From contig JAUCBJ010007816.1 in NCBI GenBank assembly GCA_032718475.1, positions 1 to 64,000 on the forward strand: a stretch of 64,000 nt of DNA, in the 5' to 3' direction. The notes under the pieces were generated by a model. It was not told where the DNA came from. It ran no database searches and saw only the letters and a program-made list of their open reading frames with translations. The DNA comes from Nemertoderma westbladi. Lineage: Eukaryota > Animalia > Xenacoelomorpha. The position numbers were made by a program, and so were the translations under genes. This document shows, piece after piece, positions 7,546-53,900 of the stretch. Every line of letters starts with the position of its first letter. Position 1 is the stretch's first letter.

Positions 7546-8734
7546 AGTCTAAATAATGTTTTGCCTTCCGGCAAAAATATCTCGCAAAGTTCGAGATATA
7601 ATTATAATTTAACCGAAACACGGTCAAATTATTTGTCAAATAATCAGTTGGTCCAAATGTCAAAATAAATTCGCAATGCAATATTGTGAATTTAATGGGG
7701 TATATAGTTATAGCAAATACTAGCACAATATTTAAACAAAAATATTATTATATAGCTACTATATAGCATTAAATACCGGTATAGCACAAAATAACTTTGA
7801 ATCTAATACAAAATATTCAAAATATACTTGCCGCCCGAATATTTCTAATTTTATATATATAGCTCTAATCAACGTAATTTTAATTTCAAATATTATATGT
7901 ATCCACTAGCGCGTGGCTACATCTTCGGGTTGCGACTCTCTCTAACTCTCTCTCTAACTTGAGCGATTCAAAAAACCATGGCCGGCTAAACCTAAATATC
8001 CTAACTAATAAATTGAGTTCAGCTTCGCAGTTAAACAACCGATAATTTTTTACTGCTTCCACAAACACAATGGTGCCAACAGAACAACTAACCTTGTTTG
8101 CTGTGAGATTCCACGTCCGCGTCCAAAGATTCAGGCCCTTCGCTGATTGCAAACCGAACCCGCAGACCCACACGAACCCCAAACTCAGAAGTCCCGTCTT
8201 GCCATGTATCTCCAGATGGTATAAAATAACTAAGCGGTTACCTAACATACCGGTACAAAACTCTAGAATTTTACAAAATAATTTTGACCGAAACTGAATT
8301 CTCGCAAACCTAGCTAATAATTTTCAAAAAACTTACTAATTACAGTTTGCCCTAAGGCCTAAGGAACTGCTGTATTCGCAATTAGCAAAAACGCACTACC
8401 GTACATCCACTGTATGCAGTACAGTAAGTAAAACAGTACACCAACCTAACAGCCTAATGATACTGTGTGTGGTACGGCAAAACAAATGTCCCTTCTACCG
8501 TACGCAGTAACAGCAATCAGCCTAATGTACTACTGTACTAGTGTACGCAGCCAGTGAATACAGTAATCTAAACTAACAGCCTAAAGGAATATACTCAATG
8601 TCTTACTGTACGCTAGCCTATAGCCTACAGCAGACGATCACGTGCTCCAATTTATTGCCTAATACTATGATACTACTATCAGCCTAAGAATACTCTATTG
8701 ACCGCTGCAAGCAACAGCCAATAACACGTATCAC

Positions 8735-10933
8735 TGATAAACAACCGCGACCTCTATACTAACAGCAGAACTGTTGAACAGACCAATACCCGTTAATATC
8801 CTTCTGCCAACCTAATAAGTTCTCGTCTAACCAATAAGACACAAAGACTGCTCTACTGTTAAGTAAAGGGGCTCAGGAGCGTGATATTACTAAATTGTAA
8901 GGGTTGCTAAATACAAAACCGCTACTTACCGTTAGATGGCGCTAATCTGCCGTCCGCTAATATATTTACTAATTTTACACAACTCCTGCAAAATCGCTTG
9001 TTCCTTTCTCTACCGATTGCTCAATAGAGAGCTAACTGTTCGAATCTATGAGCCACGCAGGAATAACCAAAACAATAAACCCGAGTCGGCTCCCTAAGCT
9101 TACTTAAGACGAGTGCGAGAGGCCTTGCACTCAGAGTATTCTTACGCCTAATTCTATCACTATTAAAGCACGCTATTACCTACGTCTTTTCTAATCGCGA
9201 ATACTGGGGGTTCTCTAACGTAATGTGTGAATGCGAGAATATTTAAAATATCAAAAATGGTACAGTAATTGTCTCTCGTGGATAGTACCACTCTGGGTCT
9301 AAAATTGCCTGCAGCTGGCTTTAGGCCAGCAAATCACTAGCGTTTCGTGCGTACCGAATAGTGCGTTCTAGCTGATTGTCCGCTAATGCAAATAACCGCT
9401 CAGCGTGAATAGTTTACAGTACTCTTAATTATTACTTTAGCTACTCTCCGCTATGCTGCGTACTAATTCTTAATTTTACTAATTAATTACAGTCACAAAT
9501 ATTTAACAGCGTACTAATTACTAAGAGTTCCAGAATACGTAATTCTAATTTATCACGCAACAGGTTTCGCTAGTAATAGCCTAAATTGCCGTATTACTTT
9601 GACCTAATCAGTAACTAATTGTTGTAACTAAGAAATAGAAATCAATCAAAGAGAAAAGAGCGCCTACCTAAACATTCACAATCATAGGCACACTTCAGTA
9701 ACACACCAATCAGCGTCAGCAATCACAGTTCGCAATTATGCAGTTAACTACTGTATAGCCCACAATTATGCGACTCACTATTCGTACTACACGCTCAACG
9801 TTCGAAACGTTGTGATACGTGCAGGCCTCTCCCGGGTACATATAGGACTCCTAACTAACCTGATTCCCGCCCCCCTAATACTAAATAGAGACGAAACCTG
9901 GATCATCAGCCCCCTAATTACCGTACCGGCGATTGGTCTGCGTACCACAGCGTTAACTTCCCGACCGCAACGGTGACCCCACGCCAGCGTTGCTCGCTTT
10001 GAATCCTCCGCTCTCCCTTAGTCGCCCAACCCCCCGATGTGCCCACCGCCCGCTGGCGCCTTAGCCCTCCATTACGCTAATAGCTACCGTAGCGGCGCAT
10101 GCAAATCACAAAGTCTGACAGTCTCAGAAATCCCTTAGGATTATTGCGCAGGAAAGAATCACATAGAACCATTAATCAAAAGTAGAAATCATAGTTCAGT
10201 TGTAATTAGCAGTAATCGAAGGAATTAATTGAGAAACACAAGCAAGAGTAATCGCACTAGCAAATCATTTCAAGAAATTAATCAAATTGCAAAAATACTC
10301 TAAAATCCGTCAAAATTGAATAGAGACAGCTCAGCAAGTACAACAGCAGTGAAGGTTGAATCGATTGATAACAGGTAAGGCTCTACCGGCACACCGCCAA
10401 TTTATAGGTGATCCGGATGGGATGATGCAATAGGGTGACTCAATCGCTCTCCTATTGGCTCTCCAGTCCATGCTAGCATTAGACCAACCTGGAAGCAGTT
10501 AATCCAATAAGGAGGCCGGATTGTAGCCCTATTGCTCAAATTATTACCATATATGGTAATGGTTCACGTCTCTGGCTGCTGAATGGCCAGGACGGCGTCC
10601 CTATATGCTAGCCCTATCAAACTAATATCAGCAAGCACAAAATCCAGGGTCCGAATAAACTCGCTACCCTGGAACTATCTACATATATCCTAATACAAAA
10701 TTACGTAGGTAGGGCTACATACTATACAAAATGGATGGTTTCAAATATATGGGCGTTTTGATTTCCCTACCTAAATACCACTGCGTTATTATGCCTTATC
10801 TAAAATATCATGCTGCACAATGGACTAATATTACGTACAGTATAACGGACTAATATTGCATACTGCATAACGGACTAATATTACATACTGCATGATGACT
10901 AATAATATGGATACAGCGCCATATACTGTAACA
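8735..10933 (-). repeat. 5' LTR of A1 (~2.2 kb, TG...CA)
   Basis: Aligns to both A2 LTRs; ends ...GTTGTTTATCA on the minus strand. Confidence 0.9.
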
Positions 10934-13722
10934 GCAGGCCTACTATTTATAAATCGTTTGAGTTGATTTATAATATATATATACCCGTTGAAATGGGTTT
11001 TGTCAATGTTTGAAATAAATGTTATTATTTCTTGGGGAGTCACTACACATAAGCTGTGCGCTCTCAGTGGAGTGCTACTTGTTGGACACTAAAACAAATA
11101 ATTCTAATTTAACTAAGTTACTTAATACTACAAATTACGTACAATTCGGGTTGAGATTACAATCTCTAAATAAACACAAAAATTTAATTACAAATACACA
11201 AATACGAATTTTTAGGGTAATTTTACAAGAAGTCTACTAACCAGCCTAACAAAGGGTTAGAATATCTGGTTATTACAACGGACAGGTTACTACGGTATTT
11301 GAAAATAATAAGTAGTAGTAAATATACTGCGTTGTCCAGATAGGAAAATACCACCGCCTGACGACCTATAACCGTATCGCTATAGGTACTACGTTATGTA
11401 TCACGGAGTGTTCCTACCCAGAAGTTAATTACCGCGGTCTACCAGAACCAACGTGCCTATTAACCACTTTACAACACTAATATACTGCCTACACACTAAT
11501 TGCTTTCGGAAAGTACTGTACACTAAACCCTAAATTAGGTACAAGTACTTGTATAACAAATAATTAGTAGTTAAAAATACTTAAACAGCTAAAAGAACCA
11601 CGGCATCTGCTGGAGTGACCGGTGCACAAAATCACCAGTCTTTACCTACGCCGAGCAGCCCTGATGTAGTACCGGGGTTAGTAAATAATAAATAATAAAT
11701 AATAAATAAATGAATAATAAATATTACGCTACGCGTACAAACTACTCAAACAAAATGCAGACCAAATACTGACAGACTACTATCAAGCCTAAACAAACCA
11801 CGGTATATGCAGACTCCGAAATGGTTAAGTAGTATGCGTTCTAACCCAGTAGTACGACTTATTCTTTAGATGGGGATTTACCTTACAGCTATGGCTGCCC
11901 CTACTTCCTAACCGTTCTTTATCGGACAGATGATCTACACACACCGAAATTTCCTCAAACCCAACAACAGCCAGACAACTATCCAGCCTACAAATTATCT
12001 AAATAAAATTATACGCTACCCGTACAGACTACACAAACAAAGTACAGACCAAACGATGGCAGACTACTATCAAGCCTAAATAAACCACAGGACATGCAGA
12101 CTCCGAAATGGTTAAGTAGTATGCGTTCTAACCCAGTAGTACGACTTATTCTTTAGATGGGGGTTTACCTTACAGCTATGGCTGCCCCTACTTCCTAACC
12201 GTTCTTTATCGGACATACACTCTACATGCACTGCAATCCGTTCAGACCTAATCAACAGTTAGCCAACAGTCAAGCCTACAAATTATCTGTACAATCTGAG
12301 CAGGCTTACACGCCTTCTGCTCAATACTGGCTTACAAATAAATAAAACTGACAGAAATAGGCCTAAGTAAAATCCCAATAAAAACCAGGCGTCCCCGATT
12401 AATTATTAAGACCTACCGGTATATAATAATCAAATCGAATAATACTGCTGTACCTGTACTGTAAGTACCGGTTCGGATGATCAGGCAGTCAGGCCTACAG
12501 GTTTCCGGTCGACCGGTACTTTCGACTAGATTGCTTACACCGCAATCCAGAAGCAATATCTGTTACTGTTTGCGCTTTTAAGACCTTTGACAGTTTAACC
12601 TGCCAAATTAGGATGTCTTTTAGATGATATATAGTCTTTAGCTTATGACGAGTATTTGATACACTACATTAGCCGAAGCCAGTCTATGCGCAATCATTCA
12701 CCCGCTGGATATACCCGGGAGACTGAATTCGGAAGCTTAATGATTGATGGTGTAAGCCTACTGTATTATTCCTGTATTATTCGACTGATCGTAATATATA
12801 ATCTCTGACAAATATTATTCACTTTCGGGAAATATTAACAGTTCCTTTAGGACGTGGCGCTCTAAATATGTAAACAGAGTTATGCTTAAACTAGACACAA
12901 CGAAAAGGCTATAGATTCACGTATATGGCGCATTCTTTAGGAGATGCTTTGTTATCAGTTACACTCATACACAATGCTGCACAATACTGCACACTAACCT
13001 GCCGACCTTCACTAAATTTAGTCACGTATAAAGAGAGCAACAGACAATTTATGTTGGGCATATGAAATAGCATTAGATTCACTTCAAACCACTTAACATA
13101 GGTCGCAATCGTTTATCTGTAACCGGTCTCTCTAACCTTTAGTATATCAAGAAGGTGGGGTATCTGACTATTGATCAGTATTCCGATATAATATTTCATC
13201 AACCAATATAATGAATAACCGACAGTAAAAGCAGTAATATTAAGGTATAAATGATTATTAAGTGAATGAGTTAACTCGGTAACAGATATACGTTCTATAA
13301 TTAAGCCTACTAATGTTAAACTAAAGACTGAAACACGGAGGTGCTCAAAAGCCGGTGTTCTTAGGCTCTGGGCAAAAACATAACACTGAACTACTGAGTT
13401 TCTGTACCCAACTCCAACACAGAGACAAAAAACGCTCTGATTGGTCAACCGAACAATGAGAGAACAAAGAAACAAAGAAATGTCGACGTGGCAATATCAG
13501 CTGTTAGCCGTCGTCATGGTAGCGACACTGTTTTCAAGAGTATCTAGCTTATCGCGTCACGAGATTGCGGATTATGTCCTCTAAAGTACAAATACAGAAG
13601 AAATGACTTTTATGTCCTCTAAAACACCAGTACAGCAAGGACGCGGCCCTTTTATGCCTGGTAAACCAACTACAGAGTACTTTAAGGGAAAATAACCGGT
13701 TAATGACGCAAAAGCTTTTACA
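10934..13722 (-). mobile_element. LTR element E: 5' LTR (12446-13722) plus leader, interrupted by A1
   Basis: TGTAAAAGC at 13722 cuts the D gag frame abruptly; CA end at 12446 followed by an 11-mer complementary to 12774-12784; leader rich in TAGGCTG motifs like the A leader. No second LTR or ORF in the window. Confidence 0.6.
11715..12288. repeat. ~287-bp tandem duplication in the E leader
   Basis: AGACTCCGAAATGGTTAAGTAGT block at 11811 and 12098 with aligned flanks. Confidence 0.9.
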
Positions 13723-14123: not shown

Positions 14124-14181
14124 TTAACCCTATTAGTACCGGGCTATAAAATGTTGTACAAATACCGGGGGGGGGGGTCAT

Positions 14182-14214
<33 letters not shown>

Positions 14215-15420: not shown

Positions 15421-15436
15421 TTTAATGAAATGTAAT

Positions 15437-17254
15437 TGAAGCGAAGAGACGTACCTGATATCCTGCAATATCCTACTGTAAAGTTTGTGAATCAAAACAT
15501 AATCCGACCTTCTCACCAAAACAGTAAACTCTAAGTAAGCGAATCTATTGCAGTATCGGTCTCTTATAACCGGTGAGGCAGAAGACAGTCTACGAACGGA
15601 CAAACTTCGATAAAACAAAATCCCGCGCAGCGAATCCTAAAATCGGGCTGACTCACTGACGGACTAAGGGCGCTCGTATACTTTGCCGCGGTGTGATTTA
15701 TATGTGGGTGAGAGATAGAGGCGCTAGCTAGATGTCTAACTAGCGGGCAAAGTGCAGTACGGACAAAATTTTTTTATATATTTTGAGGTGTAAATAATTC
15801 CTAACGCGCGTGTGTCTTGATTCTAACAGTCAAAATCAGTTTTAGATCCTTCATATATATAATTACTAGGTCCGGTGTGCATTTTACAAATATTCTAATT
15901 TTATAGCTTGTAGGTCCAATACTCACGAATGATAAGGCTCCTTCCCCTTTTGTGTATTTCCAGGACTCAAATTCAGGCATAAGGTTAATACTACGCCCGG
16001 AATTCGGCAATTTAATTTTCCAGGTCCCTAATACTAAGAAGAAATGTGTTAGTTTACTACAGTAGGCATACAGTTACAAAATAGCTAGCCTGGCGTTCTA
16101 TCTAGAATTTTGGTTGCCTAGGTGGGCACGGCAACTCCCTATCAGAATGTCGGCGGGGACACGGTAGATGTTAGTATCCCTAATAGCCTCAATTTATATG
16201 CGCCTAGCAGTAAACTGCCCTACCGTCTGAACGGTACAATCCCAATTCAGGTAAAAACACAGTAACCCTTCCTGGCCTACAAGTTCTAATGCAAATGGAC
16301 ACCGTTGTACTACAAACAGCCACCGACGCACCTATACCTGGCAAATGAGTTAGGCGTACAGCTTGCTGCACCCTACTAATGTGTATGCCTTGTACTGGTG
16401 TGCCTGTGTCCTATCTGTGTACTAGTATCTCTCTGCCTGATCTCTTCCTCCCCCATAGGAATATGAAGGTCTAATGCGGGTTTTTCTGAATTGAGACAGT
16501 ACAGTCCCTAAATGTAATTTTAGCGCACAGCGTGTCAGTACCTCTACCTTCGATCTTAGGTCTTTCGCTTAGGTAGCAAGGCATCGAACGCTGTCTAACC
16601 TTTCAGGCGATGGGCGAATACCGATGTTCCCGTCTATTGCCGCTATCCGATGTCTAGCCTGCCATCTGTCTCTCAGTTGTGTTCACCGTGGTGAAACATA
16701 GTAAAAGCAGATGTAACAAATACTTTCTAACTTTATTACAAACAAATGATAACTAATATACAATAAATGTAACAAGAAGATTAAGTAAGATAGAATAAGA
16801 AGAAGATAACTAATGAACAAAATCGCACCTTTTATAGCAAATTTGTGCTGCTAACAATCTAGATAAATCTCGATTGTTCTATGAGTTCTACTAGGTTTTT
16901 AAAGATAATCATTGGTCCAGCAAACACGTATCTTGCACGACATTGGTTGCTATCTAATAACTGCAATCGCATTGGTTAATCTACCTTAAGCAGATACAAT
17001 TAATTTGTAGCGGTTAATTCAAATGAGTTGAAACTTAGCACAAAAAATAATTCACACTTGCTAGGATTCGAACTCGATACCTACTACACGAATTTCTAAC
17101 GCTTAACTGACTGAGCTACTGAACCACTTGAATAATCGTTGTACAAATAGATATAGTAAATACAAATGAGGACTTAATGTAATCTTTATAGCAAATTAAT
17201 TCGAACAAAATAAAATTTTGAAAATCCACGGCTTTATGAGGATATAATTCTATA
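15437..17254 (-). repeat. 3' LTR of B (1818 bp, TA...CA)
   Basis: Matches 30714-31134 + 45422-46684 + 48839-49033. Confidence 0.92.
17053..17125 (-). promoter_or_regulatory. tRNA-like Pol III A/B-box cassette inside the B LTR
   Basis: TAGCTCAGTCAGTTAAGCG (TAGCTCAGTTGGTTAAGCG in the other LTR) and GAGTTCGAATCC, followed by a T6 run. Confidence 0.6.
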
Positions 17255-23100: not shown

Positions 23101-23920
23101 AAATACTGCGCATGTATATTCTTGCTTGCAGTATTATTGGGCTGATAAAACCTAATGGATCGAACAGTCTACTTAGTTTTGACAAGCAAGACCTCTTTGT
23201 CAGAGAATCTCCTTGAGCGTCCAGTCTTACCTTCACTCGAAAGTTGTCTGTGTTCGGATCCCAAAATAGTCCCAACACCTTGGTCGTTGGTAGTGGTTCG
23301 AATTCCAAGTCAATGTCACCACCCCCATGTTCAGTCGTTTCGAATGAATTTACTAATTCGGTACTGTTCGAAGCAAACTTGGTGAGGTTAAAACCTCCGC
23401 CTGCCAAACAGTCCCGTAATTGATGTGCTACTGTTATAGCACGTTCTACTGTGTCGCAACTTTGTAATCCATCGTCAACGTAAAAGTGTCGTTCTACTAC
23501 TTGGATTACCTCTGGGTCATACTTATGTTTCCAATCCCTAGCGGTCTGCTTTAGGGCGTACATAGTGCAATTTGGGCTGTCTCTGGCACCGAATACGCGA
23601 ACTTGCATTTGGTAAGTCGCCGGTGGTTGACTTAAGTCCCCATCCGGGTACCAGAGGAACCTCAAACTGTCTCTGTCTCGCTCTAACGCTCGCACCTGGT
23701 GAAACATGGCTTCGACGTCGCAAGTAAATGCTACTTGGCGTTGACGGAAGCGCATAATCACCCCCATGAGATAATTATTCATGTTTGGTCCATCCATCAA
23801 CTCCGTATTGAGAGACATTCCCTCAAACAGAGCCACGCAGTCGTTTACTACACGTACCTTGTCTGGTTTGTCGGGGTGTCTCACGTAGTGATGTGGCAAA
23901 TAGTATGTCTGGTCTGTCAC
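20181..23920 (-). pseudogene. pol: B pol: RT, RNase H, integrase and C-terminal DUF5641-like tail
   Basis: YYLPHH, FYVDD, HCFSDAS, FYWTDA, H...H...CIIC, TGIDCFGP, YSDQGTNF, GGVWERL; frameshifts near 20690; tail LKPGDHVLL...RPTQRLVLL. Confidence 0.92.
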
Positions 23921-25113
23921 ACGCTTTCGTCCTTCTGGGCTCCTCCCCGAGGCGCACCCACAAGGCGGACGTGTTTCCACCACCCTGGGGGCCGGTGACA
24001 AACCAAACCAGGCCGCAGGGTGGCCCGATGCTTCCCGGGTTCTGTTTTCGGTCCCCCGATCACACCAGCACAGCTCGTCGAACGTGTAGCCAGATGGGCG
24101 GCTACTGTCAACTTACTGTGGCCTGACTGTACATTGAGCCAACTCAAAGTATAACAAAGAGTCAACCCGCAGGTGGACCAGTCGATAGCGATCGAGCACC
24201 AAGGTCGCCCTTGGGCCTAACCGACGGTCTTGTCCCAAGCGGGCTTGCGCTACCCAACATGGAATTTTGACTCGTTTTCACCTGCCTCACCGGCAGTATT
24301 GAGGGGAAATAAGTTCCGCAAACAATACTGACTAGCTCGAAAGCTAGAAACAAGTAACCACTTACCAGTCACTGTACACGTGTACTCAACAGATGTTCAC
24401 GAAATCAAGTACACAAACGGTAAGCACAAAATCGAACACATACCATGCACACACAGAAGACATAATCGGGAAAGACAAAATCGGTGTCAAAATCGAGAAA
24501 GACAAAATCGGAGGGGACAAAATTGTATCAACTCATAAAGAGTCGAGAGTACCTTATTTTGCTGTCAGGGCAAAATAACTTTGTGTGCACAAAGTATGCT
24601 GGGGCGCAGTAAAGTATGGTCCTACTAATACCAGCGGCGTCTGGACCAACTGGCAAGGGTTCCCATACTCACTCGCAGTGGCCACACATACAATCACGTG
24701 TACTCACGTACCCACAGCAACAGAAAACTCAAGACCCGAACAAATCCCAAAGACCAATCAGCTGACATGGAGACAATAACATATAGTATCAAAAAAACGG
24801 AACAGCTGATGGCCAAAGGAACCCATCCAAGCCCCAAGCAAACTGCCACTGATCGCCCACATACAAAACATAGTTCACGCCACATGAGCCACAAATCACG
24901 CCATTGCACCACCCCTACTGTGTACAGGACTGGCAGTACGGCAACAGGCCGACTAGACGGTACCACGGCACCATGGCAATTCATGGTTCGTTAGACACGA
25001 GGGCCTTCAGTGACTCCCTATCACTATATTACCAGATTTAATGTGCCCCCAGACCCTCACGAGTCCGCCGCCGCCTGTTAGAGACACCCCTATAGAGACC
25101 TCACCTCTTTCGG
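23921..25113. mobile_element. Unclassified 1193-bp insertion in the B RT
   Basis: Removing it joins ...TNPEI|VTDQTYY, collinear with A (...EDPDL|VTDQTYY); no TSD, TIR or credible ORF. Confidence 0.75.
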
Positions 25114-33310: not shown

Positions 33311-33321
33311 GTAATACGCGC
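33311..33321 (+). promoter_or_regulatory. Non-tRNA primer-binding-site position of A2 (GTAATACGCGC)
   Basis: Abuts the LTR end; complementary to 32260-32270 and 44371-44381. Confidence 0.65.
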
Positions 33322-39153: not shown

Positions 39154-42100
39154 ACATTTTCCAATACAGTGAGGAGGAATTGCAGAAGGAATTGATACGC
39201 CAGGACCTCGAGACAGGAGCCAGAACCGTCGAATGGCTGGATAGGGACGCAATGGAACCCGGTGGATATGACCTAGCCATGTCTACTGATGAAAAACGGT
39301 CGTTGGAGATGATGGAAGACACCATACGTCTGCTACCGACTGGACATTTTGAAGTTGGAATGTTGTGGCGTCGACAACCTCCTAAGTTGGAGAACAACTA
39401 CAACTTAGCCTTGAAAAGATTAAACGGAGTAAGGGCTCGGTTGTTGAAGAATCCGGACATTAGGGAGAAGTATTGCGCCCAGATCAACAACTATTTCGCC
39501 AAGGGATTTGCTGGGAAGGTAGAGGACCCTGACTTAGTAACAGACCAGACTTATTACCTTCCACACCACTATGTGACTCACCCTGACAAGCCAGACAAAG
39601 TCCGAGTAGTCAACGACTGCGCAGCAGTCTATAGAGGTATTTCCCTGAATTCAGAGTTGATGGATGGTCCCAACCTGAATAACTATTTGATTGGAATACT
39701 GTTGCGTTTTAGACAGCGGCGATTCGCATTTACTTGTGACATCGAGGCGATGTTCCACCAGGTAAGAGCCTGTAAGGCAGACCAAGATAGCCTTCGCTTT
39801 CTCTGGTACGAGAATGAAGACTTATCCGGCCCAGTGGTTACATACCAAATGTACGTTAGGATATTTGGCGCCCGCGATAGTCCAAATGGCACGCTGTTTG
39901 TTCTAAAGAAAACGGCAACAGCCCAGATTGGTAAGTATCCAGTAGAAGTAATCGAGTCCATCTTGAGAAACTTCTATATGGACGACGGATTGGTGTCCAA
40001 GGACACGGCGGAACAAGCCATAGAAGTGGCTCACGACCTGCAAGAGTGCTTGGCTACAGGGGGTTTTCCTCTGACCAAGTTCACTACGAACTCGGAGGCC
40101 CTATTAGAGTCGTTCCCGGTGAAAGATCGCGGGAGCGGAGACATTGAATTGGGGTTAGAACCAATTCCCATGGCGCGAGTACTGGGACTCGCTTGGAACC
40201 CGAACTCAGATAAGTTCCAGGTAAGAGTTAGATTTGAGCCCAGTAGCCCAGACAAAGTTTTGACTAAGAGGATTTGCTTATCGACATTGAGTAGACTATT
40301 TGACCCGATGAACTTTATCAGTCCGGTTATATTACAGGCACGAGCGTGCATGAGGAAAATTTGGTTGTCCGACGTAGAGTGGGACGAACCAATATCTCCT
40401 ATACATGCAAAGCAGTGGAGAGAGTGGGAAGCCGAGTTGCATCTATTGAAAAATATAGATGTACCCCGTTCCTACTTTCCGAATCAGTTGGTATTTCCAA
40501 CTGATTTAGAGCTGCATCTGTTCAGTGACGCAAGTGACACCGGCTTTGGTATGGTAGCCTACCTTCGCCGAGAGGTAAGTCAGGACAAATTTGAGACGGC
40601 CTTTGTGACTTCTAGATCAAAGACAATGCCGGTCAAATACATGACTGTCCCTCGTGCAGAGTTACAGGCGGCTGTAGTTTCAGTCGAGGTAAGTAAGCAA
40701 ATAACTGAGGAATTAGACACGACATTGACCTTATTTTATTGGACGGACGCATCCTTGGTGTTAGTATACATTGCGGCCGACAATATTGCACTAAAGACAT
40801 TTGTGGCCAATAGACGCGCTCAGATCGTTGATTTTTCGACGAAGGAACAATGGAGACATTGTCCGGGAGTGTTGAACCCGGCCGACATAACTTCGAGAGG
40901 TGCAATGCCGGCGGAATTCTGTCAGGAAGAGTCGCAGGAGTTTTGGTTGCATGGACCTGATTTTCTAACGAGGACACAGGAACATTGGCCAGAGCGACTA
41001 AAGATAGTGACCAATCCGATGCCTGAAGATGCAGAAGTCAAAGTGGAGAAAGTCTCTAAGTCGAAGTCTAAAGCCAAACTTAAGTCATTGGAGCGGCTTG
41101 AAGAGTCATTGGAGCGGCCTGAAGAGTCATTGGAGCGGCTTGAAGAGTCATTGGAGCGGCCCGGAGACCTGTCAGACCAACAGACTTACGTGACTACTAG
41201 GTCAGGAAGGGTAAGTTACGACATAAAACCACCCTTACAGACTAGACGACAGTCACAATTGGTAAGTGACGGACAGAAAATGACCGACACAATGGATCCT
41301 TTGGTTTCCAAACCTGCGGGTTTGGATTCGAAACTTCCATCAATTAGCGGACAACCGTCGCTGGCATTAGAGTCATGCAGTATTTATGACAAATTACTAA
41401 ATTCGTCTGCCTCTTGGCTGACAATTTGTAAAAGAACTGCGTGGTTAAGCTGATACGTTTCGTACCTTTGTTTAAAACATTCGAAACATTTGAGAGAACC
41501 ATTGAGCACCAATAGTGAGCGAATTCGGAAATTGAAACAACCTCTGACAGAGGATGAGATTGATCAAGCGGAATTAAGGCATTTGAAACATTATCAAATG
41601 TGTGCCTTCCCTAAAGAATTCCATCTATTATCGGCTCAACGACCAGTTCTCTATAAACCCCTGAGAAAATGGAGTCCATTAATCCATAAGGGTTTGATTT
41701 GTCATAGATCGAGGATCCAGACTGTCGACATAAACTCACAGTTTCGATTCCCAGTGATAATCCCTAGTTACCCGATAGAATTGCAAAGAGCGATTCTATG
41801 GGATATACACAAGAGGTTGCATCACGCGGGAAAGTTACACTGTTTGTCGGCAGCGAGACAGCGATTCATCCTATTGCAGCCAAGCAGGGCAGTAGGCACT
41901 ATGTACGACGCCTGTCTGGTTTGCAAGAGAGTGAACGCCAGAGTATTGGAACAGGAGATGGCTGAACTCCCGGAAGCGAGAGTGCAGGCATATGACCCAC
42001 CCTTTACGAACACAGGGGTGGATTGTTTTGGTCCGATTGAAGCAAAGAATGGACGGCTGACCCACAAGCGATGGGGTCTGCTACTGACATGTATGGCTAG

Positions 42101-42641
42101 TAGAGCCATACACATTGAGCGTGTGGCAGACATGTCGACCAAATCTCTGCTCCTGGCCTTGAAGAGATTTATGGCCAGGAGAGGACTAGTAAAGGCGTTC
42201 TACTCCGATAAGGGTACAAACTTTGTCGGAGGGAATAGCGAGTTGAACGCGGCTCATAAAGCGGCACAGAATAAGGAAATTTCTGCAGCACTTTTGCCGC
42301 AACGAGTAGAATGGAGATTCAATACTCCTGAAAGTCCTTGGAGAGGAGGAAGTTGGGAGCGTTTAGTTCGCTCTGTAAAACAGGCCATTGCCAAAACATT
42401 GCCTGTGAACAAACAACTTACCGACGACGAACTGGTCACAGCTTTCATTGAAATCGAGCATACCCTAAACTCGAGGCCGATAGCTATGTTGCCAGACGGT
42501 GTTGCATTAACGCCGAATCATTTGCTAATGCAGAGTCCAGCATTTCTTGTGCCGGCATCAGAACCCATTAGTGCCGACCTATATAGTCGTAAAACCTATA
42601 TAGACGGACGCCGTCAACGGAGTCGACTGGAGGTAGATTAG
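39132..42641 (+). pseudogene. pol: A2 pol (RT, RNase H, integrase) with a premature TGA at 41451 and a truncated C-terminus
   Basis: ORFs 39132-41453 and 41490-42641 in one frame; FYMDD, FSDAS, YSDKGTNF, GGSWERL. Confidence 0.92.
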
Positions 42642-42949
42642 TGTATCTGGGAAGGGGACAAAAGAGAGGAGCGAGCCCAAAGAACCCAGGAGCGGGTCAA
42701 TAATACATTATGGCACAGGGCGACAGACTCTAGATATATACATCATCGTCGCTCTGATGTATATTGTAGCATTTGAAAATTTTCGACTAGACTCGTATAT
42801 ACTAGTTGAGTTATTTGAATTTATATTATGAAAGAGGCGAAGGAAGTGATTGGGGAGACAAACCTGCGGGTTTGGCTTACTCCTTTCACTTGCCCTAGCA
42901 AAATTTTTATATTTGATTTTGTATGTAGTAATCATTATGTAGTAAGAAT

Positions 42950-43100
42950 GAACGAGAAACAATATTTTGTAAATTTAATTTGTATGTAATAATCGTTAAA
43001 CAATGAGAGAAACAATATTTTGTAAATTTAATTTGTATGTAATAATCGTTAAACAATGAGAGAGATAATATTTTGTAAATTTAATTTGTATGTAATTCAT
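42950..43100 (+). repeat. ~53-bp AT-rich tandem repeat in the A2 3' UTR
   Basis: AATATTTTGTAAATTTAATTTGTATGTAAT occurs three times. Confidence 0.85.
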
Positions 43101-43244
43101 TATGCAATATCTATGGCAATATTTGTAAATAGTAGAATTATTATGTTATTTAGATTGGTTGGAAGAAATTTATTTGTTTTGTATACATCACCTTATACTC
43201 TTCTACAATTGGAGGGAAACATTATATGATTTCCCTTGGAGCGG

Positions 43245-45421
43245 TTTTACGGTATATGGCGCTGTATCCACATTATTAGTCGTTATACTGTATGCAGTAT
43301 TAGTCCGTTATGCAGTATGCAATATTAGTCCGTTATACTGTACGTAATATTAGTCCGTTGTGCAGCATGATATTTTAGATAAGGCATAATAACGCAGTGG
43401 TATTTAGGTAGGGAAATCAAAACGCCCATATATTTGAAACCATCCATTTTGTATAGTATGTAGCCCTACCTACGTAATTTTGTATTAGGATATATGTAGA
43501 TAGTTCCAGGGTAGCGAGTTTATTCGGACCCTGGATTTTGTGCTTGCTGATATTAGTTTGATAGGGCTAGCATAGGGACGCCGTCCTGGCCATTCAGTAG
43601 CCAGAGACGTGAACCATTACCATATATGGTAATAATTTGAGCAATAGGGCTACAATCCGGCCTCCTTATTGGATTAACTGCTTCCAGGTTGGTCTAATGC
43701 TAGCATGGACTGGAGAGCCAATAGGAGAGCGATTGAGTCACCTTATTGCATCATCCCATCCGGATCACCTATAAATTGGCGGTGTGCCGGTAAAGCCTCA
43801 CATGACACATCGATTCTGTTCAACCTGTTTTACTGTTTTTCAATCTGTCACTGCTGTTGAGCTGTCTCTAATTTTGTATTAGGATATCGTATTTTCTGCA
43901 ATTTGCTAATTTGATTAATTTCTTGAAATGATTTGCTAGTGCGATTACTTGCTTGTGTTTCTCAATAATTCCTTCGATTACTGCTAATTACAATTGAACT
44001 ATGATTTCTACTCTTTGATTAATGGTTCTATGTGATTCCTTTCTGCGCAATAATCCTAAGGGATTTCTGAGACTTTCAGACTTTGTGATTTGCATGCGCC
44101 GCTACGGTAGCTATTAGCATCATGGAGGGCTAAGGTGCCAGTGGGCGGTGGGCGCATCGGGGGGTTGAGCGACTAGGAGAGAGCGGAGGATTCAAAGCGG
44201 GCAACGCTGGCCAGGGTCACCGTTGCGGGCGGGTATCTTGCACTGCGGCACGCAGACCAATCGCTGGTACAGTATCTAGGGGGCTGATGATCCAGGTTTT
44301 GTCTCTATTTAGTATTAGGGGGGCAGGAATTGGGTTAGTTAGGAATCCTAGATGTACCCGGGAGAGGCCTGCGCGTATTACAACGTTGAGTGTGGAGTAC
44401 GAGTAGTGAATTGCACAATTGTAAACTGTGATTTCTAACGCTGATTGGTGTGTTATTGAAGTGTGCCTAAGATTACGAATGCTTAGATAGGCGCTCTTTT
44501 CCCTTTGATTGATTTCTATTTCTTAGCTACAATAATTAGTTATTGATTAGGTCAAAGTAATACGGCAATTTAGGCTATTACTAGCGAAACCTGTTGCGTG
44601 ATAAATTAGAATTACGTATTCTGGAACTCTTAGTAATTAGTACGCTGTTAAATATTTGTGACTGTAATTAATTAGTAAAAATTAAGAATTAGTACGCAGC
44701 ATAGCGGAGAGTAGCTAAGGTAATAATTAGTGTACTGTAAACTATTCACGCTGAGCGGTTATTTGCATTAGCGGGCAATCAGCTAGAACGCACTATTCGG
44801 TACGCACGATACGCTAGTAGTTTTGCTGGCCTAAAGCCAGCCGCGGGCAGTTTTAGACTCGGGGTGGTATTATCCACGTAGAAACAGTTACTGTACCATT
44901 TTTGATATTTTAAATATTCTCGCATTCACACATTACGTTAGGGAACCTCCAGTATTCGCGATTAGAAAGACGTAGGTAATAGCGTGCTTTAATAGTGATA
45001 GAATTAGGCGTAGGAATACTCTGAGTGCAAGGCCTCTCGCACTCGTCTTAAGTAAGCTTAGGGAGCCGACTCGGGTTTATTGTTTTGGTTATTCCTGCGT
45101 GGCTCATAGATTCGAACAGTTAGCTCTCTATCGAGCGATCGGTAGAGAAAGGAACAAGCGATTTTGCAGGAGTTGTGTAAATTTAGTAAAATATATTAGT
45201 GGACGGCAGATTAGCGCCATCCAACGGTAAGTAGCGGTTTTGTATTTAGCAACCCTTACAATTTAGTAATAGCACGCTCCTGATCCCCTTTACTTAACAG
45301 TAGAGCAGTTTTTGTGTCTTATTGGATAGGCGAGAGCTTATTAGGTTGGCAGAAGGATATTAACGGGTATTGGTCTGTTCAACAGTTCTGCTGTTAGTAT
45401 AGAGGTCGCGGTTGTTTATCA
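43245..45421 (+). repeat. 3' LTR of A2
   Basis: Starts TTTTAC (TGTTAC in the 5' LTR), preceded by TGGAGCGG. Confidence 0.93.
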
Positions 45422-46684
45422 ATATATATAATTACTAGGTCCGGTGTGCATTTTACAAATATTCTAATTTTATAGCTTGTAGGTCCAATACTCACGAATG
45501 ATAAGGCTCCTTCCCCTTTTGTGTATTTCCAGGACTCAAATTCAGGCATAAGGTTAATACTACGCCCGGAATTCGGCAATTTAATTTACCAGGTCCCTAA
45601 TACTAAGAAGAAATGTGTTAGTTTACTACAGTAGGCGTACAGTTACAAAATAGCTAGCCTGGCGTTCTATCTAGAATTTTGGTTGCCTAGCTGGGCACGG
45701 CAACTCCCTATCAGAATGTCGGCGGGGACACGGTAGATGTTAGTATCCCTAATAGCCTCAATTTATATGCGCCTAGCAGTAAACTGCCCTACCGCCTGAA
45801 CGGTACAATCCCAATTCAGGTAAAAACACAGTAACCCTTCCTGGCCTACAAGTTCTAATGCAAATGAACACCGTTGTACTACAAACAGCCACCGACGCAC
45901 CTATACCTGGCAAATGAGTTAGGCGTACAGCTTGCTGCACCCTACTAATGTGTATGCCTTGTACTGGTGTGCCTGTGTCCTATCTGTGTACTAGTATCTC
46001 TCTGCCTGATCTCTTCCTCCCCCATAGGAATATGAAGGTCTACTGCGGGTTTTTCTGAATTAAGACAGTACAGTCCCTAAATGTAATTTTAGCGCACAGC
46101 ATGTCAGTACCTCTACCTTCGATCTTAGGTCTTACGCTTAGGTAGCAAGGCATCGAACGCTGTCTAACCTTTCAGGCGATGGGCAAATAACTAAGAATGG
46201 GTATTGCGGGTTGTCTCCTTTCTACATTCCTCCGATATTCCCGTCTATTGCCGCGGTCCGATGTCTAGCCTGCCATCTGTCTCACAGTTGTGTTCACCAT
46301 GGTGAAACTTAGTAAAAGCAGATGTAACAAATACTTTCTAACTTTATTACAAACAAATGATAACTAATATACAATAAATGTAACAAGAAGATTAAGTAAG
46401 ATAGAATAAGAAGAAGATAACTAATGAACAAAATCGCACCTTTTATAGCAAATTTGTGCTGCTAACAATCTAGATAAATCTCGATTGTTCTATGAGCTCT
46501 ACTAGGTTTTTAAAGATAATCATTGGTCCAGCAAACACGTATCTTGCACGACATTGATTGCTATCTAATAACTGCAATCGCATTGGTTAATCTACCTTAA
46601 GCAGATACAATTAATTCGTAGCGGTTAATTCAAATGAGTTGAAACTTAGCACAAAAAATAATTCACACTTGCTAGGATTCGAAC

Positions 46685-48838
46685 AATAAATTTATTATAA
46701 TAATCTTAAATCAAAAATTAAAAAGATGTGCACCAAAAATAACAAAATTAATTCCGCCACCACACAAATATCATCGGGCCTACCACCAAAGCACCGGAAA
46801 GATAAGTTGAAGCTCAGAGGCAAGGGATCAGTACCGATCAGGAAGGTCAGACCCCCGCAGACCGGCACCGTCCCCAAATCCGAGCGCCCTCCATGGCCGC
46901 CTACCACCACGCAGGCACAGGGAGCTCGAGCGCAGAAGCGCGAACTGTAAGCGCCTCCGCACTCCCCCTAACACACAAGCGAGGCCTCGCTCACGCATCC
47001 CCCGCTGCCGGGCCACGAGGGTCTCAGCGAGGTGGCGGATCAGAATATCGGCCTCCTTGCACCACACCCCGTCGGTGGTTCCGACTAGGGGGGTGAAGGA
47101 GATCCGACGATCTTCGCACACCCCGCTGTAGTGGACCATCTTGGAACGAACTCGCTGCTCGAGTACGGAGTCCAGGGACCGATTAAGGTATGAGGGGGCG
47201 TCGGCGTTAACAATCGCAATGTCGAAAGACGCCACCCTCTGTTCGGCCCAGACTCCCCTCGCCAGGAGATCCGCCCTAACTCCACCCACCTCGCGGCCCT
47301 GTCTGTCCAGGTAGCCGGACGCCAACGTAACCTCCCGCTGGACGCATGAGCCCCCGAACGCGGACGCAATGAGGTCCCCGAACACCTCCCTCACCTCGTT
47401 GTGCCGCTTTATGATCAAGCCCCCCGACTTGCAATTAAGGGCGTGGGACGTCGAGAACGACTCCCCACACCCCTCGCACTTTGCCGGGAGGCCCGGCGGC
47501 GTCCGTCCATACCTCAAGGCGAGGTCGTCCCGGAACACCTCTGGGTCAAGGTCAGTGTGGTCGACCACAGAGGGCTGCGCCGTCAGCCATCCCCCAGTCT
47601 TATGGGACATCGTACGTTCGACGGTGCGTCGTCGTGTCGAGGGAATGGCTTGGAGTGCGTTCATCTGTATCACCTTGTAGACCGCATCCTGAGTGATCCG
47701 GCTCTCGGCGAGGGCGGAGGCGAGACAGGCTGCGTGGTCCGCGACATGGAGGGGGCGACCCGTAGTCATGGCGTCAACCACCCTGACCGTTCCAGCGAGA
47801 GACGCCTCACGGGCGGGGCCACGGCGCACCGTCGGATCACGGATCCCAATGCCGCCATGTCGAACTGGGAGGAGGAGCAACTCCTCGTCGACAGACCCAG
47901 GCAAACCAAACAGAGCCGGGATAAACTGGCGCAACAGTGCCGAACGGATGGGCGCCACATCCTCCACCTCTGTGTCCACCACCCGCAACAGGTAATCCCA
48001 CTCTGCCTGAACACAGCGGGTCAACCCAGTGTGGGCAGTCTGGGGGAACTCCTCGGCCACCTCAGCGAGACGACCAATACTCCAGACCCACCCAGAGACC
48101 TTCTCGGCGATAAACTCGCGCAAACCCAGTGAGTCGCCCACATAACCCCCCAGGAATCGGTGCCCGGGAACAATCTGGACCCCCGAGCCCCCAAACATCT
48201 GCCGTGCTCGCTCCGCAACCTCGGGTTTGACCACCAAGTAGGACTTGGTGGGCTCCGGGTTATAACCTATTCGGGGTCCGACACGAAGCAGCTCCTCCCA
48301 CCAAGCCATCACCCCCTCGAGTGAACCTGCCGAGGAGGCATCATCGGCATACCAACACTGCTTCTGTGAGAGAGTTGGGCTGCCAGGTTCAATCAACGGC
48401 GGGTCCATGGGTTGAGTCAATGGTGGATCAGTGGATGGAGTCGACGGCAAGGTGCCGGGTGGAGGCAAAGGCGGGTCTGCGGTTGCAGTCGATGGTGAGT
48501 CAGATGGTAGAGTCAACGGCGAGTCGGCGGGTCGAGTCGACAACGGATCGGCTGGTAGAGTCGACGGCGGGTCAGTGGGTTGAGTCGATGGCGCGTCAGC
48601 TGGTTGAGTCGGCATTGGGTCAGACTCGGCGGGTTGAGTCGATGGAGGGACAGCGGGTGGAGTCAACAGTGAGACGGACTCGGCGGGATGTGTTGACGGT
48701 GGGTCAGCGGGTGGAGTCGACAGTGGATCGGACTTGGCGGGTTGAGTCGATGGTGGGTCAGCGGGTGGAGTCGACAGTGAGTCGGTCTCGGTGGGTTGAG
48801 TCGACGGTGAGTCTGCGGGTGGAGCTGACGGTGGGTCA
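46685..48838 (-). mobile_element. 5'-truncated CRE-like (RLE) non-LTR retrotransposon, copy 1
   Basis: 14-bp TSD GCTAGGATTCGAAC (46671-46684, 48839-48852), confirmed against the empty site at 17060. Confidence 0.85.
46828..48837 (-). CDS. Pro/Ser/Thr repeat + RT C-terminal half + CCHC finger + restriction-like endonuclease
   Basis: QCWYADD, HRFLGG, CEGC...HALNC, KRHNEV, RADL...FDIAI; frame is open up to the insertion edge with no true start codon. Confidence 0.8.
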   Translation of the reverse strand, partial: DPPSAPPADSPSTQPTETDSLSTPPADPPSTQPAKSDPLSTPPADPPSTHPAESVSLLTPPAVPPSTQPAESDPMPTQPADAPSTQPTDPPSTLPADPLSTRPADSPLTLPSDSPSTATADPPLPPPGTLPSTPSTDPPLTQPMDPPLIEPGSPTLSQKQCWYADDASSAGSLEGVMAWWEELLRVGPRIGYNPEPTKSYLVVKPEVAERARQMFGGSGVQIVPGHRFLGGYVGDSLGLREFIAEKVSGWVWSIGRLAEVAEEFPQTAHTGLTRCVQAEWDYLLRVVDTEVEDVAPIRSALLRQFIPALFGLPGSVDEELLLLPVRHGGIGIRDPTVRRGPAREASLAGTVRVVDAMTTGRPLHVADHAACLASALAESRITQDAVYKVIQMNALQAIPSTRRRTVERTMSHKTGGWLTAQPSVVDHTDLDPEVFRDDLALRYGRTPPGLPAKCEGCGESFSTSHALNCKSGGLIIKRHNEVREVFGDLIASAFGGSCVQREVTLASGYLDRQGREVGGVRADLLARGVWAEQRVASFDIAIVNADAPSYLNRSLDSVLEQRVRSKMVHYSGVCEDRRISFTPLVGTTDGVWCKEADILIRHLAETLVARQRGMRERGLACVLGGVRRRLQFALLRSSSLCLRGGRRPWRALGFGDGAGLRGSDLPDRY

Positions 48839-49274
48839 GCTAGGATTCGAACTCGATACTTACTACACGAATTTCTAACGCTTAACCAACTGAGCTACTG
48901 AACTACTTGAATAATCGTTGTACAAATAGATATAGTAAATACAAATGAGGACTTAATGTAATCTTTATAGCAAATTAATTCGAACAAAATAAAATTTTGA
49001 AAATCCACGGCTTTATGAGGATATAATTCTATAGTAATTTTCAAAAAACGTCTCAAAAAAAGTGCCAAAAGTAGGGTTAAAAAATGGTGCTATAACTTGA
49101 AAAGTACCCAATATTTTTGAAAACGGTTTTCACTACTATGAAGACAATAGATTTTAAGGAAAAGTCATAAAATTTAAGATTCCCAACTTCGTTTGTTTCA
49201 GAATTATAATAAAAATACCATGGGGAGGGGGGTCATATTAACCCCCCCCCCCCCCTCGGGTTTAATAGGGTTAA

Positions 49275-50235: not shown

Positions 50236-50442
50236 AGTGGCGTTCAGCTCGTTCCAAGCGTCTTCCGCTTCTGGAAGTCCGAGATTTATCCGATGATTTG
50301 TCAAACTCGTCGGAAGATGTATAGCACTCGAGCTGTTTGGTCCCCTTTTCCTTTAACTGAGTGTCCGATTGTTGTTTTTCTGTTAGCGAATTCAATTCCG
50401 CCAACCACCCCATAAAGTTGGCCAAGCGGGGCCTTTAAGCAA

Positions 50443-50958
50443 TATTGGGAGTACGAGGTTGATTGCCAATCAACCTCGTATCACCCCAATAAACGGGGCG
50501 ACAAACCCCAAAGGAACACAAACACAGCGGGGGTCAGAGATTACACCTCCAGGAGGGAGAGAGTGACAGTAGCGGGGGGAAGCACTCCCAGAGAGATGGG
50601 AGGGCGAGAATTGGGTTATTAGCCAATGGGAGGCAGGCATCCACTGAGTAATGTAATACGGCCAACCAGTGCAATATATTACCAGTTACTGTTCCTCATT
50701 TATTCACTTAGTTAGTCAGTTTAGTTAGGGCAGAATGGGAACTCTTATTACCGTCTACTGCCGCCACCATCATTCAGCTATTTACCGGTACACTTACTTA
50801 ACATTCAATAAACTGTGTTTATACTTTATGCAATTATATTAAATCCTATATTCATACATACCGATCAATCAACAACCCCAGAACTCTTTTCACACACACA
50901 CGGCGGGGACGCGTAGATAAGATAACCGGATAAATCGGGATTCTCGGATCCCGTCACA
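50443..50958 (+). repeat. Probable 5' LTR of C
   Basis: CCAAT-like motifs, TATA-like ATATATTA near 50674, AATAAA near 50807, ends CCCGTCACA; no second copy in the window. Confidence 0.55.
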
Positions 50959-53900
50959 GTAATAAGACTCCAGCAGTTGCCCTAAAAACGATAGAAACTA
51001 ACTGACAGTCACTAGCCACTAAGTAAAGACAAAGATGAGTCGAGAAGGAGAGACGACACCGCCGCGTACCCCGGACGGCGTCCTAACGATCCGCGAGGCC
51101 GCGACGCGATGGTACCGACCCACGACACCGGATCCGTCGACCATAGGCGATCCGGCAATCCAAACGGAGGGGGGCCGTCTACAGCGAGAGGATGAGTCGA
51201 GAGAGGAGAGAGACGAGTCGACACACGACGGCGGTCGACGTGCCGATGTCGCCGGCCAGCCACAGGCCGAGGGCGATGGACGGCCCACCGGAACGGCGAC
51301 GGTGGGGCCGCCGGTACGACGCCGGACACGGAGGGATAGAGGAGACGTCGGCGACGAGGACGTCGGGGTCAGCGACTGGCTCCGACGAGCCTACAACACA
51401 TCCGGAAGCAACTAAGAGAAGCCAAAGGAGGGGCCAAGATAGACCAGGTGAAGCTAGAGAAGCGGCTAGGTGAGTCGAATAAACATTTTGATTACTTAGT
51501 GCGCTTTGGGCAGGAAGAACTAGCCAATGAGAGAGCGAGAGGGGTTGCCACCGAACTGTTTGAACTGTGGGAATGCAGGGGTATGGAGCCTGGTGTAGTG
51601 TAAATAGGGCCATACTTAGTCGATGCCCGGGGAATTAAATTGGTGGGTTGGAAGAGACCGCAGGAGGGCGAATCCGAGGTTAACCCCGAGGATTCAGTCT
51701 CGTCGGTCGGCGAAAATTCCGGAAGGCTGGGGAAAGTTAGTAGGACGGGAAGGTGGAGGGAGTCCGTCGCAACCGATAAGTCTGCTACATCCTCCGCAAA
51801 AGTAAGACGGGTGCTAGAAATAGATCTGGCGTGCCAACTCGATCTGGCGGCGCTAGACCAGAGAGAATTAGAGAGACAGTTGGAAGAAGGGAGTGCGTTA
51901 TTAGAGAAGGAGAAAGAACTGGCTAGAGAGAACAGAGAGAACGCCGAAAAGGTCACGAGAAGTTTTAAGGAGTGTGAGGAAATAGGGAGGATAGAAAGGA
52001 AGGAGCTTGAAGAGCGTGAGGCGAGAGAGCAGAATAGACGTGAAGAGCGTGAGGCGAGAGAGCAGAGTGAGCGAAAAGAGCGCTAGGCGAGACGACTGGA
52101 GAGAGTTGTGAGAGAGGCGGAGTTAGCGGATCAGAGTTCACGAGAAGATAGAGAGAGAGAAATAACGGGAAAGCATGTGCGGGATGATATGCACGCCCGG
52201 TTGAGGGGGCTTATGCTATATCAAGCCAAACAGAAGCGCCGCCTAGAACTGGCGCAGATGGGGCTGTCAGAGAGCGAGGCTGGCTCGAGTAGTATTTACG
52301 AGGAGCCAGGAGTTAGGGAAACATTTATTAATACCCCACTTACAGGGACCAGACGACAGACCCAAGACTGGTGTGACCGTACGGGCAGGGGGGAGTAATA
52401 ATGATAATAATACAGTAGAGGACGTTAATATTAATAGTACCATAGTGGATAACCCTAATCAAACTTTTGTTGCAGGAAATAACATTTTGTCCGATGGTAG
52501 TAATTTAAATCCGAGCCATTCTAATATAAACGTAGGAAATAATTCAAATAATCTAAATCTGAATTTACAAAATAATTCAAATAATCTTATTTCGAACGAA
52601 CAAAATAATCCCGTTTCTAATTTAGGCGTGCAAAATAATTTAATTGATTTGGAGGATTTAATTGATTTAACAGATAATACTGGTAATGGTCCTATTAATA
52701 TGAACGTGGCGGACGTGCATAGCCCGGGCAAATGAGGGCCTGGTAGGCCACGCAGTCAGTAGGCAGGAGGTGGCGGGGGTGAGAAACCCCAATGAGGGCC
52801 TGGTAGGCCACGTAGTCAGTAGGCAGGAAGTGGCGGGGTTGAGTCAACCCGAGGGGGGCCTGGTAGGCCACGTAGTTAGTAGGCAGGAAGTGGCGGGGTT
52901 GAGTCAACCCGAGGGTGGCCTGGTAGGCCACACAGTAGTAGAGAGAGAGGCGGGGGTGAACGGACCCAGCCGCAGTAGGGTTAGTGTGTCGACTAGAGAG
53001 GGGTGTAGAAGTGAAGTAAGAGGTAGTGGAGTGGTAGGCGGCGAGCGGGGGGGGGGGGGGGGGGGGGGGGGGCTACAGGAGCCCCACAACGAGAGATTAG
53101 CGGCGAGAGGAGGGGGGCAAAGAATGTCCCACAGGCGTCGGCAGATAATGCGCGGGGCGAATTAGGTGAACCGCAGCACCCGGCGATGGAGTATAGTAGG
53201 GGGGTTACGAGTATCCCCAGCGGCGTGCGATCGAGCAGAGAGAGACAGGTTGACGTCGCAAGAGGGCGGGCGACGAAACGTCGAGCCCGATCAGAAGAAG
53301 GAAGAAGAGCAGTGGAGTTTAACCGGGAGGTCGACGAGAGATCTCACGAACGGGGATACTGCACTACAGAGAGAAGAAGGGAAGAGAGTAGAAGAAGTGT
53401 CGTCACGAACGACAGGAGAGCGAGGACGGATAGCGAGCCGTCGGTAGTGGAGATGGAGACGGAGAGTCAGTGGGGTCGAACTCCGGGAGATTGCCGTCGT
53501 CCCGGGGATACGCGACCTGACGAGGCGTACTACGCACAGAGAGAGGGGTACAGGATGTACCGGCACGAGGACGAGAGCAGTAGATGGGATCGAAGAGAAA
53601 CTTCCCGACGGGATATACCTGCCGATCGAGAATACGGTAGCCGCGGGGAGGATTATTCGAGAAGGTTAAACTTTGATCCCGAGCGACACATACAGACTGC
53701 AGGACATACTGTAGGCCTTACTGCACATACCATAGGCCATGCTGGGAGAGACAACGTAGGCGATAGGATAGCGCGGACAACGGGATTAAACCCGGAAGTC
53801 GCGGAGTACATACCGGCAGGTAGGCCAGAAGTGGATAGGCCTATACCGGTACCAGCACAGCATTATGACTAAGACATGCAGGGACATAACATATACCCAG

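Follow-up and report, generated by a model that had tools for sequence, protein, structure and literature searches.

The 64,000 nucleotides analysed here (positions 1 to 64,000 of the forward strand of contig JAUCBJ010007816.1, assembly GCA_032718475.1, from Nemertoderma westbladi; hereafter the window) hold nested long terminal repeat (LTR) elements, designated A1, A2, B, C and E, plus an insertion, D. A stretch of 9–13 nt from each element's own LTR pairs with the bases just past the 5′ LTR, where no TGG-type tRNA site is present, and to judge from the sequence this stretch likely primes reverse transcription. In LTR elements, minus-strand synthesis must begin no more than a few bases from where the 5′ LTR ends, and the element's own segment is the only complement found at that position.

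Element A2 (+) is nested in the 5′ LTR of B, with the target-site duplication (TSD) ATATA. Its 5′ LTR (31135..33310, +; TG...CA) and 3′ LTR (43245..45421, +; directly preceded by the short purine tract GGAGCGG) enclose a gag-pol region of three open reading frame (ORF) pieces (34588..42641, +) encoding DUF1759, reverse transcriptase (RT), Peptidase_A17 and an integrase zinc finger. Element B lies on the minus strand with the TSD ATTAC and LTRs of the form TA...CA. Its 3′ LTR (15437..17254, −) is unbroken and its 5′ LTR (span 30714..49033, −) is broken by D and A2 into three pieces (49033-48839, 46684-45422 and about 31134-30714, −); several ORF pieces (20513..29416, −) encode DUF1759, RT, Peptidase_A17 and integrase. 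The LTRs of A and B measure 1.8–2.2 kb. A1 (−; 5′ LTR at 8735..10933) is nested in the leader of E. Element C (+) extends as far as the right window edge, with a likely gag ATG at 51036 and with DUF1759 and RT/RNase H remnants (60310..63593, +; RT/RNase H at 62007-63593) that are 31–35% identical to A and B.

By their encoded proteins, A, B and C are BEL/Pao elements, because the Pfam domain DUF1759 is shared by A1, A2, B and C, A2 and B also match Peptidase_A17, and C retains the RT/RNase H remnants. A1 was assigned through A2, to which it is 96% identical at the DNA level. PF05380 occurs in all of the at least 120 homologs listed for the A2 polymerase piece, and the named homologs among the matches listed come mostly from corals, molluscs, echinoderms, crustaceans and fish. 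The acidic RNase H motifs are legible by eye in A2 and B. Of the four BEL/Pao families claimed in an original prediction on this DNA, A, B and C stand on their proteins. The fourth, E, has no coding match within the window, where A1 interrupts its leader and the remainder lies beyond the edge.

Self-complementary primer-binding sites in the window

The five pairs of primer-binding site (PBS) and complement reported in the original prediction were all recovered at their positions and strands, and no TGG directly follows the LTR at any of the five sites, as had been said. The A2 PBS (33311..33321, +) forms 11 Watson–Crick pairs with the predicted primer in the 3′ LTR (44371..44381, +) and pairs with that in the 5′ LTR (32260..32270, +) with one G-U. 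In A1, the PBS (8724..8734, −) and predicted primer (9812..9822, −) carry two compensatory changes relative to A2 and form 10 Watson–Crick pairs plus a G-U at PBS position 11. The B PBS (30703..30713, −) forms 10 Watson–Crick pairs and a terminal G-U with the predicted primer in the 3′ LTR (16455..16465, −), and the two LTR copies agree in placing this G-U at PBS position 1 (5′ LTR primer, 46024..46034, −). The bases after the B primer (16445-16437, −) are predicted to pair with the end of the unique 5′ region (U5; 30714-30725, −), a helix extending past the cut site. In C, the PBS (50959..50967, +) after the inferred LTR end 50958 pairs with a predicted primer of 9 nt (50743..50751, +), with 3 further pairs beyond an internal loop. 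The E PBS (12433..12445, −) after the inferred LTR end 12446 offers 11 nt, or 13 with one G-U, to a predicted primer at 12774..12786 (−), whose 13-nt form starts at the A of TCAGTC. Where duplexes of 11 nt had been described, the complement is present in every case; those of A1 and B are not fully Watson–Crick, ending in G-U, and that of E is longer. Pairing had also been said to stop exactly at the LTR boundary, which a second LTR copy fixes in A1, A2 and B and which is inferred in C and E from the single LTR copy that each has in the window.

Under a first-order Markov model, the matches are expected 0.00105 (A2), 0.00077 (A1), 0.0029 (B), 0.0043 (C) and 0.00052 (E) times per LTR. The observed length was attained by one of 200 shuffled leaders each for A1 and B, and by none for A2, C and E. 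Among 56 decoy leader anchors it was attained by one for A2 (probably the element's own second PBS copy), one for A1, five for B and none for C and E; B is therefore the weakest of the five window sites. In the alignment of A1 with A2, 131 of 2447 sites differ, and two of the 11 pairs of their duplex are altered on both sides yet still paired, which would occur by chance with a probability of about 1e-4. For E, one contig of run X1, whose RNA origin is only guessed, is changed at 12785 such that the G-U next to the 11-mer becomes A-U. No variant falls inside the 11-nt primer or PBS of E among the run X1 variants listed, to which the fragmentary coverage lends little weight.

Hairpins are predicted next to several of these sites. 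That of A2 begins at the first base past the PBS (33322..33357, +; z −5.3), a 12-bp hairpin in A1 (8696..8723, −; z −3.6) and an 11-bp hairpin with a UACG loop in B (30677..30702, −; z −4.0) adjoin the PBS, a weak 9-bp hairpin in E (12400..12432, −; z −1.3) lies past the 13-nt duplex, and no post-PBS hairpin was found in C. Such a hairpin could stack on the primer duplex and set its far boundary. A U5-IR-like stem beside the PBS reportedly exists in Tf1, going by the title of a 1998 paper by Lin and Levin. The A2 leader contains an insertion of 90 nt (33322-33411) that repeats the PBS together with the 5 bases that end the LTR, so that a second LTR end, a second PBS (33401-33411) and an A1-type hairpin follow one another at 33396..33439 (+). 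Both A2 PBS copies pair with the A2 primer and a hairpin stands after each; the two hairpins are unrelated sequences.

Rfam gave three weak matches below the gathering score and no ribozyme near a primer, and a hammerhead considered from CTGATGA in the A LTR was rejected by eye, having no GAAA partner in hammerhead order. ARAGORN called no tRNAs. A tRNA-like sequence near the start of the B LTR (17125-17055 and 48905-48839, −) was called by neither program. The target duplication of insertion D (46685-48838, −) is 14 bp long and lies in the T-arm of this tRNA-like sequence; the 688-aa frame of D, without Pfam match, is 61–70% identical to a frame in the C gag region (57086-59317, +); D and its counterpart inside C are probably truncated non-LTR retroelements. 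Two further frames of B, of 332 and 163 aa (18166-19636, −), lie between integrase and 3′ LTR and likewise lack a Pfam match. The window also contains two copies of a G-run/C-run inverted-repeat end (14160-14230 and 49215-49270), probably of a small DNA transposon, and tandem arrays at 14632-15385 and 55056-55956.

Split complements in related families

Relatives were gathered by a scan of metagenome contigs, the best 80 of 483 loci being grouped into 60 families; 52 pattern matches in viral contigs included no relative. In 15 families, the anchored set, the 5′ LTR end was set by comparison of the 5′ and 3′ LTRs, with four ends adjusted by eye, over a few bases, to fall on CA or TA. GT or AT opens 0–6 nt past the LTR in the anchored families other than L012. 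With strict GTRAG donors, 11 of the 15 reach a self-complement of 10–15 nt (8 spliced, 3 contiguous), each beating all 56 decoys. The count becomes 14 of 15 (10 spliced, 4 contiguous) once wider donors and one adjusted end are allowed, a rise that reflects a donor list widened after families F3 and F10 were seen and the moving of the F15 end. The comparison of PBS with own LTR across relatives, proposed together with the original prediction, has been carried out in this way, and the complementarity recurs.

Among the contiguous anchored forms, three families have 10–12 nt and a fourth, decayed, has 13 nt. The ten spliced families present just 5–8 nt in contiguous form, immediately after a pyrimidine-rich YAG. 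The remaining 4–9 nt stand immediately before a GTAAG, GTACGT or GTAGGC donor 71–409 nt upstream, and exon joining yields 10–15 perfect pairs. The predicted introns (71–409 nt) are 44–53% T and end in YAG. The exon-1 part of the primer covaries across L003, L027, L056 and L077, and L052 and L059 have the same junction with different introns. By eye, A directly precedes the TG of the 3′ LTR in 12 of 13 readable families with a spacer before the PBS, and G does so in L014, A2 and B, all spacer-less. The pre-PBS spacer mirrors, again by eye, a spacer after the purine tract, which fits a primer ending at GT. The LTR ends in TA instead of CA in several related families (L018, L047, L055 and L013), and in L040 an AATAAA lies within the exon-2 part of the primer, directly past the 3′ splice site (about 6942-6949).

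The PBS is unlike in almost every family and pairs with its own LTR, not with the LTRs of other families. Under the wider rule, 15 of 342 foreign PBS × LTR pairs reach at least 10 nt, six of them from three related families with a common primer. This comparison of own and foreign pairs, along with the anchored tests, the covariation and the recurrence across families, refutes the notion that the complementarity is due to chance or is a by-product of LTR inverted repeats, and we give it practically no credence. What speaks for chance is that unanchored 10-mers are common in these loci, where a search for them yielded only noise, and that decoys can equal B's 10 nt. A second alternative assigns priming to a tRNA, tRNA fragment or small RNA of the host and makes the LTR segment only a partner of the PBS in regulation or structure. 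It would agree with the tRNA priming that the ICTV, the international virus taxonomy committee, describes for the family, and with L012, the only anchored family with a TGG-type site, whose self-complement is just 4 nt. However, the PBS changes nearly family by family, even between A1 and A2, and in each case matches its own LTR; moreover, beyond the five window sites without TGG, a TGG start occurs among the 15 relatives only in L012 and in L036, where it lies within the spacer and a 14-nt self-complement. A host primer is therefore very improbable.

Of the other 45 families, 35 had sufficient upstream DNA for scanning and formed a second tier. A match of 10–14 nt at a CA/TA plus GT/AT site was found in 11 (9 spliced, 2 contiguous only), and foreign pairs in this tier reached 11 nt in 0 of 110 cases. 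In an RT tree of 63 rows, built by a quick method, spliced and contiguous forms are interleaved, A groups with B, and C is a long branch. Deep support in this tree is weak and that for L012 is below 95; a single origin and the order of intron gain and loss are not fixed by it.

Within the window, no splice-split primer of at least 11 nt was found in A, B or C with relaxed donors, and a split form in E was rejected, having weak donors only, which indicates that the window copies carry the segment ready-made. Run X1 contigs over 8000-17700 and 12380-12830 contain no intron-like joint. The A U5 has a GTAAGT donor at 33117 (+), kept in A1, and an AG stands shortly before the gag ATG (34588); this pair could define a PBS-removing intron, which would leave an mRNA unable to prime. 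In B, a CAG/GTACGT lies 18 nt before the LTR end.

The proposed priming pathway

The prediction of self-priming is supported by a self-complement that is real, covaries and recurs in nearly the whole anchored set. Beyond it, we consider it probable, with less assurance than for self-priming as such, that a broad animal BEL/Pao lineage has given up the tRNA primer in favour of an internal self-primer assembled by the spliceosome across an LTR intron. Splicing of the cap-proximal LTR copy would gate reverse transcription and the 3′ copy would keep its intron; the window families would be intron-loss derivatives whose cleavage substrate is the primer–PBS helix, stacked on an adjacent hairpin. What is new is the internal, splice-assembled primer, which the split complements strongly indicate. 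Both the splice-split form and the PBS-side hairpin go beyond the earlier reading.

First, transcription would start upstream of the segment, such that the primer is internal. In most relatives, splicing of the 5′ LTR copy would then join the segment split by the GT..AG intron, which the window families would carry ready-made, probably through intron loss. The segment would anneal to the PBS, in A, B and E stacked on the hairpin beginning at the next base. Next, the element's RNase H would cut past the 3′ end of the segment (usually ...AC) to yield a 3′-OH, as in Tf1. Minus-strand DNA would then extend through U5 and a short R region, bounded by the cut and the poly(A) site, before it jumps to the 3′ LTR. 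Finally, the PBS would be rewritten as the primer is copied during plus-strand synthesis, which would explain the covariation. Two other sources of the primer 3′ end were considered. Spliceosomal cleavage was rejected, as the primer ends 3–8 nt into exon 2, and a natural 3′ end of the transcript is disfavoured by poly(A) signals lying mostly downstream.

The original proposal of an internal primer gains support from 10 of 14 anchored relatives, whose complement is interrupted by a predicted GT..AG intron. The complement would thus be present only in RNA that has been spliced, and this implies that the primer is internal; the contiguous copies of the window also fit a 5′-terminal one. These copies might self-prime exactly as Tf1 does, with a transcript beginning at the first base of the segment. 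The 13-nt duplex of E starts at the A of TCAGTC, which we take to be an initiator-like motif, with an AT-rich stretch 25–33 nt upstream, and the A duplex begins at a T/G step. Primer lengths also cluster near 11 nt, like that of Tf1 in passages of a review (PMC7175516). Against this, the lengths range from 9 to 15 nt, the ten spliced families would need a first exon of 4–9 nt, and in A and B TATA and CCAAT boxes precede the segment by 370–650 nt, among them the TATA-like box of the A LTR (31660..31666, +; about 600 nt upstream, of inferred function). The adjoining hairpin can, in addition, account for the sharp boundary. On balance, a 5′-terminal primer in the window copies appears unlikely.

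Poly(A) signals bear on whether an R region is left for strand transfer, and on this point the check suggested with the original prediction gave a divided answer. Nine of the ten spliced families have A[AT]TAAA at or past the end of the primer, as do B and C (AATAAA at 50807 in C), so an R region is left; the LTRs of A and E lack a canonical signal. The position of these signals also means that natural 3′ ends do not supply the primer, which argues against the same primer being provided in trans by a partner RNA or a short spliced LTR-only transcript, with unspliced RNA as the template. Supply in trans would explain why the intron survives; it is found in both LTR copies wherever both could be read (L005 and L077), and predicted intramolecular pairing after splicing is weak (at most 0.17) in five of the ten spliced families. 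However, strong intramolecular pairing is predicted for A2 (0.81), C (0.83) and E (0.81) and for 8 of 14 relatives; in the other five spliced families the prediction is 0.47–0.98. We regard supply in trans as improbable, more so than a 5′-terminal primer, and retain the internal, splice-assembled primer acting on its own transcript.

Several observations weigh against this pathway. The weak pairing in half of the spliced families is one of them; the predicted pairing is also just 0.12 in B and 0.01 in L063, and in F3 it reaches 0.76 even when unspliced. The distance from primer to LTR end is about 1 kb in A and B. A post-PBS hairpin with z −2.5 is reached in just 2 of 14 relatives, and a terminal U5 hairpin is not enriched (4/20 versus 6/40 windows, p 0.24). 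A TATA-like box is present upstream of the primer in just 4 of 10 spliced families, and no A[AT]TAAA occurs in the A and E LTRs. No convincing site was found in 24 of the 35 unanchored families, many of which are without a full LTR or PBS, and the exact intron-less junction of the ten spliced families (as a 24-mer) is present in none of the 80 loci. Retention of the intron demands that the 3′ LTR copy evade splicing, which is unaccounted for. Finally, the priming steps (transcription start, splicing, RNase H cut and transfer) are deduced from DNA sequence.

Comparison with known systems

Unspliced RNA usually serves as the genome. If the proposed pathway is correct, splicing would make a replication primer, the reverse of this rule, and host splicing control would be tied to the element's ability to copy itself. 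The elements would be freed from tRNA dependence, and theirs would be a third LTR-element superfamily with self-priming. The pathway would account for annotation by tRNA match or contiguous BLAST finding no PBS in such elements, and it predicts exact junctions and cut sites that can be checked in existing RNA-seq and cap analysis of gene expression (CAGE) data.

The ICTV describes Belpaoviridae (Semotivirus) with an 18-nt PBS for tRNA-Arg or tRNA-Gly and with LTRs of 0.2–1.2 kb (PMC8742986), which agrees with the original prediction's remark that BEL/Pao elements are generally held to be tRNA-primed. The window elements resemble this family in gag-pol order, in DUF1759 plus Peptidase_A17, in animal hosts and in the 5-bp TSDs of A2 and B. 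They differ in that A and B have no 18-nt tRNA PBS and have LTRs of 1.8–2.2 kb. The PBS trait of the ICTV is descriptive, and membership in BEL/Pao rests on the proteins; the statement on tRNA priming would need correcting if the self-primer is real. Word look-ups in the accessible text of a BEL/Pao survey (PMC3118150) returned no "primer", "PBS" or "tRNA", and in that of the Sinbad paper (PMC554778) no priming terms; the accessible parts of PMC3601003 and PMC8220671 add nothing on priming. No report of BEL/Pao self-priming or of a splice-built primer was found in the literature searched, most subscription journals lying outside its reach.

Self-priming has also been predicted for plant Tcn1 and TAR elements, according to sections of PMC6317226. 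In the plant Ty1/copia TAR lineage (Houba, Osr-1), the prediction was made from an LTR complement of at least 10 bp located 0–5 bp past the 5′ LTR, a test that the window elements pass as well. The TAR lineage belongs to another superfamily, and the same sections describe a blastn search for contiguous complements, by which a splice-split primer would be missed.

The closest parallel is provided by Tf1, which according to passages in reviews primes with the first 11 bases of its transcript, cut by RNase H (PMC7175516, PMC4600332, PMC5341516), as the original prediction had stated; Tf1 cDNA often keeps the copied PBS, as a passage in PMC11042837 has it. Tf1/Tf2 of Schizosaccharomyces pombe, Tj1 of S. 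japonicus and the Tf1/sushi and Tcn1 groups of Ty3/gypsy are likewise described in such passages as lacking a tRNA site and having an LTR RNA segment of about 11 nt that is complementary to the PBS, with release by RNase H proposed. A complement of about 11 nt directly past the 5′ LTR is present in the window elements, whereas the Ty3/gypsy chromovirus-type proteins of the Tf1/sushi group are absent and Pao-type domains are found instead. In contrast to that group, these elements are of BEL/Pao type, and their primer, 9–15 nt long, is likely internal; in 10 of 14 anchored relatives an intron is predicted to split it. The window elements most likely work in the manner of Tf1 self-priming, yet are not members of the Tf1 group.

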